DNA of 39,956 nucleotides from an uncultured archaeon (GCA_964458565.1 CAYWJO010000030.1:1-39956); one strand, 5' to 3'; counted from the first letter of the stretch, positions 24,218 to 32,871 are shown. Notes: generated by a model from the letters alone, not told the origin. Translations and numbers: made by a program.

Positions 24218-25132
24218 ATGGTGATCGGATACGACGTTGCTGAAGATGGAACTCTTTCTGAAGTGGAGCTTACAAAAGAGACATTGGATTCTACCAAAGT
24301 TGTCTGTGTTATAGATGATGAAACAAAAAGTATCTATCTTTGGAAAGGCAGTCAAGCTGGAATCAGGAGAAAGTTCATCGGAGCACGGGTAGCTACCAAC
24401 CTTCGAACAGAATACGGATTTCACTTCAAGGTGAGGCCATTAGACGAAGGTGAAGAACCACCTACATTCTTTTCTGCTCTTAATGGGAGTACGGCCGCAA
24501 CCAGAGTTTTGAAGCCTGGTGAAGCAGCTCCACCTCCAACACCTCCCCCCAGCAAGACGACACCAGCGAAAACAGAAGAAATTGAAACTACCACGAGGAC
24601 TCCTGTGACTACGACCACGCCTCCTCCTACACCCCCTCCGACGAAAACAACCTCACCTCCTCCAACTCCTCCTCCCACAACTACAACCACAACTCGTCCT
24701 CCTGTTTCTGCACCGCCAATTGCATCTCAGGAGATCGACGAGATGATAAAGGAGCTCGAAACTGTTGACCCTCCTGATGGATATCAAAGGGAATTATTAA
24801 TTGTCAATAATGTTCTTTACACCGTTGCAGAGCATAAAATTACAGTTTTCGGACAAGAGAAAGTTGAACGCAGATTCGAAAAGGTCAAGGATCCACCAGA
24901 AGGCACATTCATGGCTGAAGGATTCATACCAAGAGTCATTGTGAAAGACGGGCGCGTTCTTGGAATCGAATTATTGAAAGGCACACCTGACGCTATACTC
25001 AGTCCAATAAAAGCTGAGATGAAAGAGCGCCTTAGTGACCTTATTACTTTCTTCAAAAGTGAAGTTGATGAAGTTCCTGAGGATGATGGCAAAAAGGGTT
25101 CGAAAAAGAAGAGTAAACTTGTCGCTAAATAG
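24218..25132 (+). CDS. gelsolin-like domain protein with Pro/Thr-rich linker and unknown C-terminal domain
   Basis: LDSTKVVCVIDD...IYLWKGSQA...LDEGEEPPTFF matches the gelsolin repeat pattern (L.S.D.f.lD, iy.W.G, v.eG.E...F). PPPTPPP occurs three times. Confidence 0.85.
   Translation: MVIGYDVAEDGTLSEVELTKETLDSTKVVCVIDDETKSIYLWKGSQAGIRRKFIGARVATNLRTEYGFHFKVRPLDEGEEPPTFFSALNGSTAATRVLKPGEAAPPPTPPPSKTTPAKTEEIETTTRTPVTTTTPPPTPPPTKTTSPPPTPPPTTTTTTRPPVSAPPIASQEIDEMIKELETVDPPDGYQRELLIVNNVLYTVAEHKITVFGQEKVERRFEKVKDPPEGTFMAEGFIPRVIVKDGRVLGIELLKGTPDAILSPIKAEMKERLSDLITFFKSEVDEVPEDDGKKGSKKKSKLVAK
24530..24718 (+). repeat. low-complexity Pro/Thr-coding repeat (three PPPTPPP units)
   Basis: CCN/ACN-rich tract inside the gelsolin-domain gene. 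Confidence 0.85.
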
Positions 25133-26897: not shown

Positions 26898-28652
26898 CTA
26901 CTCATCTAAGCTCTGAATGATTTTCTTCAAAGCTTGCATTGCTCTGTATACTTCATCGGGTGTATCAGGTTTATCTCCCATTTTGAGAATTGCATTCTCT
27001 GATAGAGCTCTTATGTCCTGATGAACTCTTTTAATCGAATCAAGTACGCCATTTAATGATGTCCTGATTCTTGTTCTGGTCGCTGCTAAATCGGGGTCAT
27101 CTGTTGAGGCAGCACTAGGTATCTGAGACTGAATTGAAGTGAGTGTTGTAGTTAAATCACTCATTCTGGAAGTGATTTCATTCAACTTTTCAGAGAAATC
27201 ATCTACTCTTCTTTTCTTGATGTCCCACTCTTGCCAGAATTGAGGCGCTTCTGTCTTGATTTGTTCCTCTTCAGAATGGATCGTCTTTCGTATCCTATCT
27301 CGAATTTGAACAAGGGCACTCTCTACAGCTCTTTTCTTATCTTCTTCTCTCTTATTGCTGATACTCTCTATAAGACTATCATCACCAAGCATTGCATCTA
27401 TCTCATCAATAATGTCATTTACTGTATTTATTCTAGCTTTGGCGAGTTCGATCTCTGAATTTTCCACTTCATTTCTTACAGAATCTAACGCTTTTGAAAG
27501 AACTGAAGCTACCTTCTCTAGTGGTTCGGATTCCAATTTGCTGTCAAGGATTGATGCAGTGAGGATTCCAACACGACCCTGAGTTACATCGATTGCCTGG
27601 AGAATCTTTGATGATTCTTTGGTGTCTCTCAATACAAGTGTTCCTGGTCCCGCTTGAAGTGAATACTCCGTTTTGAGTTTGTCAGTATATGATCCTCTTA
27701 CCATAATAGAGAGTTCCATAATTTTCGGAATCTCTCCAGTTCTTGTGGATTTAGCTGTGATATCCATGTTTACGGATTTTCCCGGCGGTATCGTTGGGAA
27801 TCTTTTTGATTTTTCCCCAGCAACGATTGTGAGATCTCCATCCAAGAACCACTCAGCTTTAAGATCCAGAGCATCGCCTTCTCCTGTATTATGAATAGTG
27901 ACTATCATGGGTATTTGTTCACTAAACGTCATGTCAATGGGTATATCTAGCTGAGCTGAAATTTTTGGTGACTTCAATCTTCCGCGAAGAATTTCCCTAA
28001 CCCTGTTTAGTCCTTTGTCAACATAAGGAATGAACTCATTAGCTCCAGAACTTGCGAGAGCTGCCTTCAATTCTGTCACTGTAGCATTTTCAGCCTCAGC
28101 AAACGCTGAGATATCAACCGATTGTATTGCTGATTCTAGCATCTGTGGAATTTGACTCAATCTCACCACAGCTGGAAATTTCAGCTTTGACGCATTTTCA
28201 GCTGAATAGGTTCGAGCTTTGTAAAATCCATCAGCTTCTCGACCGACCATTATAAACATCATACATGCTGCCATAGCGATTGCGGTGCCTTTTCTGACTT
28301 CACTATCCTCTCCCCACATTAGGTATTCTCCCGAAGATTTGAAGAGATCCTCAGCAGCTAGAGTATACGCATCGATTGCTTTTGGTGCTTTTCCCATATC
28401 GGAATAAACATCGCCTGCAGCACACATATTTAGAGCAGCATTCTTGTAACTTTTTGATGCTCTAAATTTGTCAGCAGCTATATTGAAAGCATCCGCAGCC
28501 TTTTCGTAAAGTTGCTCTGATTCCTGTAAGTTACCTTTTCTTTCAGCAACTTCAGCAGCTCTCAGATATTTCTTACCAGCTTCGGTGAAAGAATCTCTAA
28601 GAGACTCCTTCGTAGCAGCTTCTATTATCTGTCTGATTTCTTCATCTGACAT
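26898..28652 (-). CDS. alpha-SNAP/TPR-like solenoid plus CARDB/Ig-like domain plus coiled-coil protein
   Basis: Ala-rich helical repeats (AADAFNIAADKFRASKSYKNAA, YSDMGK), a central beta-sandwich pattern (VTIHNTGEGDA...IPPGKS...SYTD) and a heptad-rich C-terminal half. No signal peptide or TM. Confidence 0.7.
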   Translation of the reverse strand: MSDEEIRQIIEAATKESLRDSFTEAGKKYLRAAEVAERKGNLQESEQLYEKAADAFNIAADKFRASKSYKNAALNMCAAGDVYSDMGKAPKAIDAYTLAAEDLFKSSGEYLMWGEDSEVRKGTAIAMAACMMFIMVGREADGFYKARTYSAENASKLKFPAVVRLSQIPQMLESAIQSVDISAFAEAENATVTELKAALASSGANEFIPYVDKGLNRVREILRGRLKSPKISAQLDIPIDMTFSEQIPMIVTIHNTGEGDALDLKAEWFLDGDLTIVAGEKSKRFPTIPPGKSVNMDITAKSTRTGEIPKIMELSIMVRGSYTDKLKTEYSLQAGPGTLVLRDTKESSKILQAIDVTQGRVGILTASILDSKLESEPLEKVASVLSKALDSVRNEVENSEIELAKARINTVNDIIDEIDAMLGDDSLIESISNKREEDKKRAVESALVQIRDRIRKTIHSEEEQIKTEAPQFWQEWDIKKRRVDDFSEKLNEITSRMSDLTTTLTSIQSQIPSAASTDDPDLAATRTRIRTSLNGVLDSIKRVHQDIRALSENAILKMGDKPDTPDEVYRAMQALKKIIQSLDE

Positions 28653-28749: not shown

Positions 28750-29040
28750 TCAATAGACTTCACGCGGTGAGTGTTTGAGTCGGTCTGGAAGACCACCACC
28801 ACCACCCATAATCTCCAGTTCGTACCCTTGACCAATTCTTCCCTTTCTAGAAGTCTGAAATCCAGATTTCTGAATTGATCTTGCGTTTCTTTCAGCGGCT
28901 CGTTTTTGAATCATACTCACACCACTTTGTACTGTGAGAATGAGTTTCTTCTGCGCATCATCCACCTTGAGAGTTATCTCACCAGATGGCTGACCTGCGC
29001 TCTCATGAAACTGGTTTTCCCGGTATTCGAGAAATGTCAT
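28750..29040 (-). CDS. small hypothetical protein, possible degenerate gelsolin/ADF-fold
   Basis: ATG 29040 gives 96 aa; the longer track ORF overlaps the upstream gene. KVDDAQKKLILTVQSGVSMIQKRAAERNARSI parallels the gelsolin domain encoded at 24218. Confidence 0.6.
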   Translation of the reverse strand: MTFLEYRENQFHESAGQPSGEITLKVDDAQKKLILTVQSGVSMIQKRAAERNARSIQKSGFQTSRKGRIGQGYELEIMGGGGGLPDRLKHSPREVY

Positions 29041-30452: not shown

Positions 30453-30681
30453 GGTATAGACTACCTCATCTTGAACGTAGAAAAGAAGACGGTGGTTCCT
30501 CAAAAGAATATTGTTCATGTATTCTATCTTATTATTCGTCTAGTTTTACTCTCAATGTGATAATAGAATGTGAATGATCATAGAATGGGGATGCTTCCAT
30601 GGGTTTCTAAGCATGGCTAGAAGTCCCCACCTTTATAGGCATATTCCTAACCCAGTGGGGATAGAATGTTATGGACGCCTT

Positions 30682-32871
30682 CTAAACATATCCTGGAGGA
30701 AGTTGCCTTTCACCACTAGGTTGTCTACGAAGGACGCGATCCGCTATTACCTCAAAGCCCTTCTCAATTTCAGGTGAAATGCTTGGCCTAACCTCAGTCA
30801 TCGCTTTTTCGAAATGCTCCATTTTCACTGGTTTGGATTTCCAATCGTCTCTTATCGCTGCCATTGCTGCCTCTCTACATATTCCTTCAATGTCAGCTCC
30901 CGAGTATCCCTCTGACTTATCTGCAAGATTTTCCAAGTTTACACTCTTATCCATTGGCATATCTTTCGTGTGTACTTTGAAGATTTCTAACCGAGCATCT
31001 CTATCAGGTGGTGGTACAAACACGACTGCATCAAATCGACCTGGACGAAGTACTGCTGGGTCTAGCATGTCAGCCCTATTTGTAGCTCCAATCACGAGTA
31101 CACCCTGTAATGCTTGCATCCCATCAATCTCAGCGAGAAATTGATTGACAATTCTCTGAGTCACACCTGTATCATCCCGGAGGCCACGTGCACTCATTAT
31201 CGCGTCAATCTCATCAAAGAATAATACACATGGTGCAGTCTGCCTTGCTTTCTTGAATATTTCACGGATTGCTTTCTCAGATTCTCCTACATACTTGTTG
31301 AAAATCTCGGGACCCCTGACAGAAATGAAATTCGCTTCACTCTCTGTCGCAACTGCTTTTGCTAAGAGGGTCTTTCCTGTCCCTGGTGGTCCGAATAGGA
31401 GAACACCTTTTGGTGCTCTAATCCCCATTTCTTGAAAGACTTCAGGATGTCTTAACGGTGCTTCAACAGCTTCTTGAAGTTGAGATTTGACCTTCTCTAG
31501 TCCACCAACATCATCCCATCTTACATTTGGTTTTTCAACCATGACTTCTCTCAATGCAGATGGGCTGATCTCCGAAAGGGCGGCATCGAAGTCGTTTTGA
31601 GTTACATAGAGATTCTGCAAAACATCTGTGGGGATATCCCCTGTATCGGGGTCCACATGCGGTAAGGCTCGTGCTAGAGCATGCATTGCTGCCTCACGAG
31701 CTAACGCTGCTAGGTCTGCCCCTACAAAACCATGACTAACCGAGGCCAGTTTCTCAATATCCACTCCTTCTTCAAGTGGCATAGCTCTAGTATGTATCTG
31801 GAGAATTTCCAGACGTCCTTTTTTATCTGGTACTCCAATCTCAATTTCACGATCAAATCGACCTGGTCGTCTCAGGGCTTCATCCACATCATCTGGCCGA
31901 TTTGTTGCACCAATCACTATTACCTGACCCCGCCCTTCAAGACCATCCATAAGGGCAAGGAGTTGAGCAACAACTCGTCTTTCAACTTCACCTGTTACAT
32001 CAGCTCGTTTCGGTGCAATACTATCCAACTCGTCAATGAAGATGATACTTGGTGAATTCTTCTCGGCTTCTTCAAATACCTCTCTTAGCTTTCCTTCAGA
32101 CTCTCCATAAAATTTCGACATTATTTCTGGTCCATTTATGACCTTGAAGTTTGCACCTGATTCATTCGCAACTGCTTTTGCTATCAACGTCTTACCAGTT
32201 CCTGGTGGACCCATTAGAAGTACTCCTTTTGGTGGTGAAATACCAAGACGCTTGAAAAGGTTCGGAGATTTCATTGGTAATTCCACCATCTCCCGTATTT
32301 TTTGTAATTCCTTGGAGAGTCCTCCGATATCCTCATAGGTGATTTGTGGTATCGTCACATCCTCTGGCTTTGTTGGTTTTGTCAATACTTCCAAAACTGT
32401 TTCTGATCCTACCTTGACATGTTTGCCAGGAGTAACTTGTGTGACAACAAATTGTAGACCCTGCCCAATTGAGGTAATGATCATTAGGTCTCCACGTGTG
32501 ATTGGTCTATTCATTATCTGCTGTTTGACATAGTTTTCAAATCCTGGTTGAAATCTTACTGGTTGACTAGGCGCAATGACAACACGTGTTGCCTCAATTA
32601 CATTAATTGGACGAATCTCGACACTTTCTCCTAGTCTAACCCCTGCATTATTGCGAATGAGACCATCCATTCTAACCATGTCAAGTACTTCGTCTTCTTT
32701 CAGGCTTGGCCAACAAACTGCAACAGTTTCCTTTGTCCCCTTCAGCAGCACGTGATCCCCTGATCTAACACCAAGTTGATTACGAACTTCCGTATTTAAT
32801 CTGATAATACCTCTGCCTTGGTCCTTTGGCATTGCTGCTGCTACTTTTAATTTCATTATTTCTTCAGTCAC
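30682..32871 (-). CDS. cdc48: CDC48/p97/VAT family AAA+ ATPase
   Basis: N-domain plus two AAA modules (GPPGTGKT twice, FIDELD/FFDEID, RPGRFD twice). Confidence 0.97.

Follow-up and report, generated by a model that had tools for sequence, protein, structure and literature searches.

The SNAP family (alpha-, beta- and gamma-SNAP and yeast Sec17; PF14938; structures 1qqe, 9cru and 2ifu) is built of antiparallel, Ala-rich helical hairpins stacked on one another and ends in an NSF-activating C-terminal tail. One study describes the C-terminal part of SNAP as the part that stimulates NSF (PMC2139964). SNAP, NSF and the SNAREs are among the components of eukaryotic trafficking with the least clear prokaryotic roots, and an Asgard SNAP would matter. 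The literature on Asgard archaea combined with alpha-SNAP, Sec17 or soluble NSF attachment protein yielded no description of one, and Eme et al. 2023 make no mention of SNAP or TPR. Two broader groups of folds are also relevant here. One comprises the generic TPR-like solenoids (TPR_12, CTPR and PPR designs, the SHNi-TPR of NASP, KLC and Get4). The other comprises Ig domains of the CARDB/MG/TRAP-beta type (PF07705, PF05753, PF01345 and PF10633), which usually occur outside the cell or in a lumen, as parts of secreted or membrane proteins.

The locus studied here lies in a window of 39,956 nt, the whole stretch of DNA that was analysed, with a G+C content of about 40% throughout. A preliminary description had proposed an alpha-SNAP-like protein with an Ig-like sandwich and a coiled-coil C-terminus, and the reading frame and its tripartite layout are borne out. 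The ORF list and the translation give a gene of 584 codons plus a TAG stop on the minus strand (26898..28652), and the AlphaFold2 (AF2) model shows a solenoid, an Ig-like sandwich and a helical C-terminus. The start codon is sound because the aligned orthologues have the same MSDEE... N-terminus. A TATA-like ATTATAT stands 14-20 nt before the ATG, too near for the usual archaeal spacing, so we claim no promoter. The protein can be classed as a TPR scaffold, unusual for its cytoplasmic Ig domain of the CARDB type. We consider it probable that it serves as a soluble, non-enzymatic scaffold or adaptor specific to Asgard archaea, whose TPR-Ig core would bind a partner and whose helical tail would space or oligomerise the molecule.

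The whole-protein AF2 model, computed from a 30-sequence alignment, has a mean pLDDT of 87 but a pTM of only 0.49, and the relative orientation of the domains is therefore uncertain. Modelled alone from a 59-sequence pan-Asgard alignment (the target N-domain and 58 family members), the N-domain reaches a pLDDT of 94 and a pTM of 0.89. It comprises residues 1-228 (27969..28652, minus strand) and forms an alpha-alpha solenoid of 11 helices. At the level of fold this is a TPR-like solenoid, as seen both in the antiparallel hairpin stack and in the TPR-type sequence matches, and the Foldseek and VIA neighbours of the domain are helical-repeat proteins throughout. The solenoid passes straight into an eight-stranded Ig-like beta-sandwich (residues 229-343; 27624..27968, minus strand), which carries a conserved N-x-G-x-G-x-A motif. 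An antiparallel three-helix bundle follows (residues 344-424; 27381..27623, minus strand), and the protein closes with four long amphipathic helices of 43, 42, 32 and 18 residues (residues 425-584; 26901..27380, minus strand).

Conservation falls off along this architecture. Mean pairwise identity is highest in the second half of the solenoid (67% for residues 111-228), followed by its first half (59% for residues 1-110), the Ig domain (52%), the three-helix bundle (48%) and the tail (28%). The invariant residues are concentrated between positions 160 and 260 and include an IPQ motif (168-170), R219, R223, P229 and the N-x-G-x-G-x-A of the Ig domain. The protein is most strongly conserved over the later half of the solenoid and the beginning of the Ig domain, and this region is therefore likely to be a ligand-binding or rigid functional core. 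The tail is charged and quick to evolve, and its length varies across the family, with indels in the alignment. Most Thor orthologues end in K-K-x-E-L-x, a short basic-acidic tail with Leu at or near the penultimate position (last 10 columns of the alignment); this extension is missing from the target (window 26901-26930) and from its three closest relatives.

The structure of the sandwich resembles CARDB, MG and TRAP-beta domains, and by sequence the assignment is borderline: CARDB scores 19.6 bits against a cut-off of 22.7 and TRAP_beta 15.8 bits against 22.4. Across the family, Pfam returns sub-threshold matches to CARDB, TRAP_beta, DUF11 and NEW3. Unlike the usual CARDB-type domain, this one sits in a protein with no signal peptide or TM segment, and none was detected in any of the 59 aligned sequences (target N-domain and 58 family members), which makes the earlier label "cytoplasmic" reasonable. 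The sole hydrophobic helix of the target (119-137) is a buried helix of the solenoid in the model. Since CARDB-type domains are usually extracellular, a non-classical localisation may nevertheless apply. A TRAP-beta orthologue (PF05753) was ruled out, as no hydrophobic segment is fit to act as a signal peptide or TM anchor and the score is below cut-off. No catalytic family matched the target in Pfam or NCBIfam at E <= 10, and the NCBIfam scan returned nothing meaningful.

The C-terminal 240 residues are all-helical, as anticipated. Seven helices of 18-43 residues are predicted with short turns between them, and they form a three-helix bundle followed by long hairpins instead of a single continuous heptad rod. 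A SNARE consists of a 53-residue motif, usually with a C-terminal TM anchor; the target has no match to PF05739 or PF00957 at E <= 10 and no TM segment. The only related matches are an insignificant one to Syntaxin-6_N in one orthologue (16.9 bits against 29.4) and one to syntaxin Habc at E 0.03-0.19. The SNARE-motif models, which the preliminary description had suggested for the C-terminal helices, were equally negative for the genome as a whole: although the assembly is 93% complete, neither PF05739 nor PF00957 exceeds its cut-off, and the best E values (0.11-0.12) equal the noise of control genomes. The two Cdc48 genes of this genome are of ordinary type, and the combination of SNAREs with an NSF-type ATPase, the partners of a SNAP, was not found. 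Matches of the C-terminal helices to TIP47, apolipoproteins, syntaxin Habc and spike HR1 (E 0.003-1) were set aside as compositional helical similarity. Whole-model Foldseek matches to INTS7, COPI, STAT, Sec63/Brr2, AlkC and arrestin superpose at an rmsd of 17-25 A, a "helices plus sandwich" coincidence, and BBS9, returned by VIA, was rejected at 61 A. No link was found to the large TRAPP subunits (TRAPPC8/9/10/11), whose architecture the preliminary description had compared with that of the target.

The resemblance to SNAP was the central claim of the preliminary description, and part of it is real. Both strings that it quoted occur in the target, where residues 52-80 read AADAFNIAADKFRASKSYKNAALNMCAAG and residues 83-88 read YSDMGK, and PF14938 aligns in the same register, residues 46-106 on model positions 28-88 of 282 (28335..28517, minus strand). 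The match has an E value of 6.9e-4 and scores 19.6 bits (19.0 in the genome-wide scan), short of the curated Pfam cut-off of 25 bits. TPR_12 does slightly better (E 9.8e-5), and the matches to TPR_12, TPR_2 and TPR_8 are likewise all sub-threshold, so that the comparison of SNAP with generic TPR reveals no robust SNAP preference in the target. SNAP is nonetheless the commonest Pfam match among the Thor orthologues (19 of 30 at E <= 0.01, compared with 10 of 30 for TPR_12), a point in favour of descent from the SNAP lineage. Only one of the 17 orthologues scanned singly, P0006, exceeds the PF14938 cut-off, with 33 bits.

The same alignments argue against such descent. PF14938 covers 61 of its 282 positions in the target and at most 105 in any orthologue, never extending past model position 143, and neither the target nor its orthologues match the full model with its C-terminal helical bundle. 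The registers, moreover, are inconsistent. Among 12 orthologues in which residues could be paired one to one, the offset is -18 in seven, +2 in two and about +42 in three; these differences are shifts of one or two helices, and the PDB and structural alignments add further registers. Shifting of this kind is characteristic of a repeat-class resemblance and not of orthology. The Pfam match to SNAP is absent from eight non-Thor family members, including those of the Baldr-, Loki- and Kari-labelled clusters. When the target N-domain is compared with all PDB sequences by phmmer, Sec17 is the sole match (E 0.02), whereas a pan-Asgard N-domain profile loses it and finds designed PPR/CTPR proteins in the lead (E 2.5e-4). 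As for the generic TPR solenoids, their single-repeat matches all fall below cut-off, and the best-conserved half of the target solenoid (111-228) matches no repeat family.

In the structural comparison with the isolated N-domain as query, Sec17 occupies Foldseek ranks 1-18 (E 7e-5 to 7e-4) and leads CTPR and KLC by one to two orders of magnitude; below it come CTPR, alpha-SNAP, KLC, RapH, Get4 and gamma-SNAP. VIA overlays residues 49-225 on the C-terminal half of Sec17 with an rmsd of 4.0 A (145 residues) and on that of gamma-SNAP with 3.8 A (140 residues). These structural matches belong to the evidence in favour of a SNAP relationship. Both proteins are antiparallel stacks of Ala-rich hairpins, yet they differ in what comes next: in the target a 228-residue domain runs directly into the Ig domain at residue 229 and then into helices, leaving no free SNAP-type tail, and the C-terminus with which SNAP stimulates NSF (PMC2139964) is replaced by that Ig domain.

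The specificity of the SNAP model also has to be considered. It matches proteins in 11 of 14 control prokaryote genomes, above cut-off in two of them, and the ESM-Atlas neighbours include TPR clusters from Methanobacteriota, Bathyarchaeota and Nitrososphaerota that carry PF14938, so that many non-Asgard archaeal TPR proteins are hit. Within the target's own genome, three other ORFs outscore the target. The SNAP HMM is therefore specific neither to eukaryotes nor to Asgard archaea. A SNAP label assigned through PF14938, which a few database entries of this family carry, is unreliable evidence, given that the HMM cross-matches ordinary archaeal TPR proteins. The target is no orthologue of SNAP. 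All that links its first four or five helices to SNAP is a loose class of hairpins, Ala-rich and TPR-like, to which both belong.

Elsewhere in the same genome, two SNAP-HMM-positive ORFs stand side by side (G000:C9:72226-74150; loci L002, L006 and L079). One, on the minus strand, encodes 259 residues and covers most of PF14938 in two pieces (9-258; 25.5-27.3 bits). The other, on the plus strand, is a 436-residue TPR + Ig ORF that probably belongs to a "TPR + two Ig" family. The best SNAP match of the genome is listed for a 616-residue ORF (C2:92712-93473, 26.3 bits). The "TPR + two Ig" family (about 416-436 residues) resembles the target in coupling a solenoid at the N-terminus to an Ig domain of the CARDB type but has a second Ig domain in place of the three-helix bundle and tail, and we regard it as a distant paralogue and a separate family. 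Its 436-residue TPR + Ig member on G000:C9 matches the Ig part of the target family's profile at E 2.5e-7 and the SNAP HMM weakly.

The target family itself is sharply delimited. A word-indexed search returned about 210 close homologues of about 590 residues each, annotated as "hypothetical" or "TPR repeat protein"; nearly all of the named ones carry the label Thorarchaeota, and a few bear Hermod-, Loki- or Promethearchaeota labels. An exhaustive HMMER search added remoter relatives of 437-700 residues that align over most of the family profile. The named members in 20 remote clusters come from Baldrarchaeia, Wukongarchaeota, Lokiarchaeota, Hodarchaeales, Kariarchaeaceae, Heimdallarchaeota, Odinarchaeota (one label) and the "Asgard group". 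No non-Asgard name occurs among the named close homologues or the named members of these 20 clusters, and, as far as seen, the family is Asgard-restricted among its named members. Of 301 genomes sampled from the phylum, 216 match its profile at E <= 1e-5; within the GTDB family of the window the figure is 67 of 76. Multi-domain matches (E 1e-13 to 1e-94) extend to about 15 other GTDB families, and some families of the phylum have only weak matches or none. The target's genome has one full-length copy. No longer fused forms of the family were found, although this is weak evidence. The preliminary description had named two outcomes that would tell against it, hits to generic TPR proteins with no preference for SNAP and a wide spread of homologues outside Asgard archaea; the first is what we observe, in that no robust SNAP preference exists, but the family is not widespread outside Asgard. 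Its broader suggestion of a eukaryotic-signature-like adaptor or tether keeps the idea of a non-enzymatic adaptor, and the Asgard restriction stands as well; the links to SNAP, TRAPP and SNAREs are not supported.

The genes around the target, for a Roadblock/LC7 protein, Cdc48, an AN1-M50 protease and gelsolin, are of the sort expected in an Asgard archaeon. Across genera of the window's GTDB family, a syntenic block runs from ABC transporter genes through a membrane protein, gelsolin-X, Roadblock and an aminotransferase to the target, and then on to a 96-residue protein, a poly-Pro membrane protein, a 315-residue protein (termed V4R-like in the preliminary description), cdc48 and hsp20. This Thor block is family-level synteny and not evidence of an operon. 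In 25 non-Thor Asgard loci, the neighbours are RuBisCO-like, AcnX, LSM, pyruvate kinase, HD, BacA, glycosyltransferase, PadR, S26e and CBS genes. They are unrelated, heterogeneous housekeeping genes, and no neighbour is conserved across Asgard lineages. The 315-residue gene directly follows cdc48 in the window (30519-30681) and at L050 and L051; most other Thor genomes sampled have about 2.5-3.5 kb of extra DNA between the two (e.g. L039:11591-14382).

The 96-residue gene (28750-29040, minus strand) begins the case for a cytoskeletal role, in which the target would act as an adaptor that helps to organise actin or membranes together with the 96-residue protein, and perhaps with gelsolin and the poly-Pro membrane protein. 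This gene is separated from the target, upstream of it, by 97 nt, is co-oriented with it, adjoins it in 14 of 15 Thor loci sampled and is the only neighbour that still does so in the rearranged genome L045. A homologous domain of about 80 residues is found in proteins of 248-282 residues encoded 2.2-2.5 kb from the target in four genomes of a distant Asgard family, which has only three copies per genome. All four, however, belong to one genus; they thus represent one event, and one that emerged after many comparisons. The remaining Asgard families examined show no neighbour of this kind. A 51% identical paralogue of the 96-residue protein lies at G000:C22:34937-35209. BLASTP and phmmer against the PDB detected no similarity of the 96-residue protein to gelsolin or to any solved structure, and a gelsolin likeness was rejected on that ground.

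A bona fide Asgard gelsolin is nevertheless encoded 1.8 kb from the target (24218-25132, plus strand). The first 88 residues of this 304-residue protein match Thorarchaeota ProGel (7c2f, E 5e-15) and other Asgard 2DGel structures, although no Pfam family matches it at E <= 0.01; a Pro/Thr-rich linker and a C-domain of no assigned kind follow. Asgard genomes carry many genes for gelsolin, Roadblock and similar proteins, and their proximity may therefore be due to chance. Taking both sides together, we consider the cytoskeletal role unlikely.

A second alternative places the target in protein quality control, as a TPR-type co-chaperone or protease adaptor that would present clients to a metalloprotease or unfoldase. 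Here the pertinent neighbour is Peptidase_M54 (archaemetzincin), whose gene adjoins the target gene at its 3' end, or overlaps it there, in three genomes from two GTDB families, probably Baldr-like (L054:7389-7937, gap 24 nt; L061:6482-7039, gap 0 nt; L068:5967-6545, gap -8 nt). This arrangement suggests that M54 and the target orthologue are co-transcribed in that lineage. The linkage is confined to probably one class (Baldr-like forms of 454-463 residues) and does not occur in Thor or the other families examined. In the Thor genomes the run of genes includes hsp20 and cdc48 and lies beside the AN1-M50 protease. Co-chaperones that combine TPR, a sandwich and helices do exist, SGT1 being an example. 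The sandwich of the target, on the other hand, is of the Ig/CARDB type, no CS/p23 chain appears among the structural matches listed, and no match to a chaperone family was found. We therefore judge a quality-control function distinctly unlikely.

Two Asgard families have a further recurrent neighbour upstream of their target orthologue (L058:10130-12070; L067:4256-6196; L071:11272-13563), a protein of 646-764 residues with an N-terminal TrmB-type winged helix and a long helical region. One of these families also has a 1009-residue TRAP_beta/CARDB protein (E 1.6e-8) and a PRC-barrel protein. The recurrences of the 96-residue domain, M54 and the TrmB-type protein are all lineage-limited, and none generalises across the phylum. 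The cytoskeletal and quality-control roles are thus each weakly suggested by neighbours of limited range.

The remaining alternative returns to SNAP. A highly diverged SNAP-lineage adaptor would dock a Cdc48/NSF-type AAA+ ATPase onto a helical-bundle substrate, and its partner would be the product of cdc48, which lies on the strand of the target, 2 kb upstream here and 2-5 kb upstream in most Thor genomes sampled. This linkage is only family-level synteny: it is missing from L045, the one rearranged Thor genome, and from every one of the 25 non-Thor loci examined. As, in addition, nothing in the genome matches a SNARE or synaptobrevin model over cut-off, we hold this reading to be very unlikely. 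The Cdc48 of the window (30682-32871, minus strand) ends in ...LPPGYV, which we take to resemble an HbYX-type (hydrophobic-Tyr-X) C-terminal motif; motifs of this type dock AAA+ unfoldases on the 20S proteasome. A very remote but real SNAP relationship with a Cdc48 link is possible at a very low probability. A genuine and very ancient kinship of the N-domain with the SNAP lineage, which would make the family a pre-eukaryotic SNAP-like adaptor coupling a Cdc48-type AAA+ unfoldase to a helical-bundle client, seems highly improbable. If it were true, the NSF-SNAP-SNARE disassembly module would have an archaeal precursor in this family, conserved throughout Asgard archaea, Hodarchaeales included.

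Taken together, these data favour a soluble Asgard scaffold or adaptor. In this model, a TPR-like solenoid coupled to a CARDB/MG-type Ig sandwich would form the core of the protein, which would work through protein-protein binding. The three-helix bundle and the variable, charged tail would most likely serve as a spacer and/or a self-association module, and the tail may oligomerise. The target is a strongly conserved single-copy protein, pan-Asgard in range and apparently confined to these archaea, and its cytoplasmic Ig domain is unusual. It makes a reasonable subject for interaction and structural studies in cultured Asgard strains.
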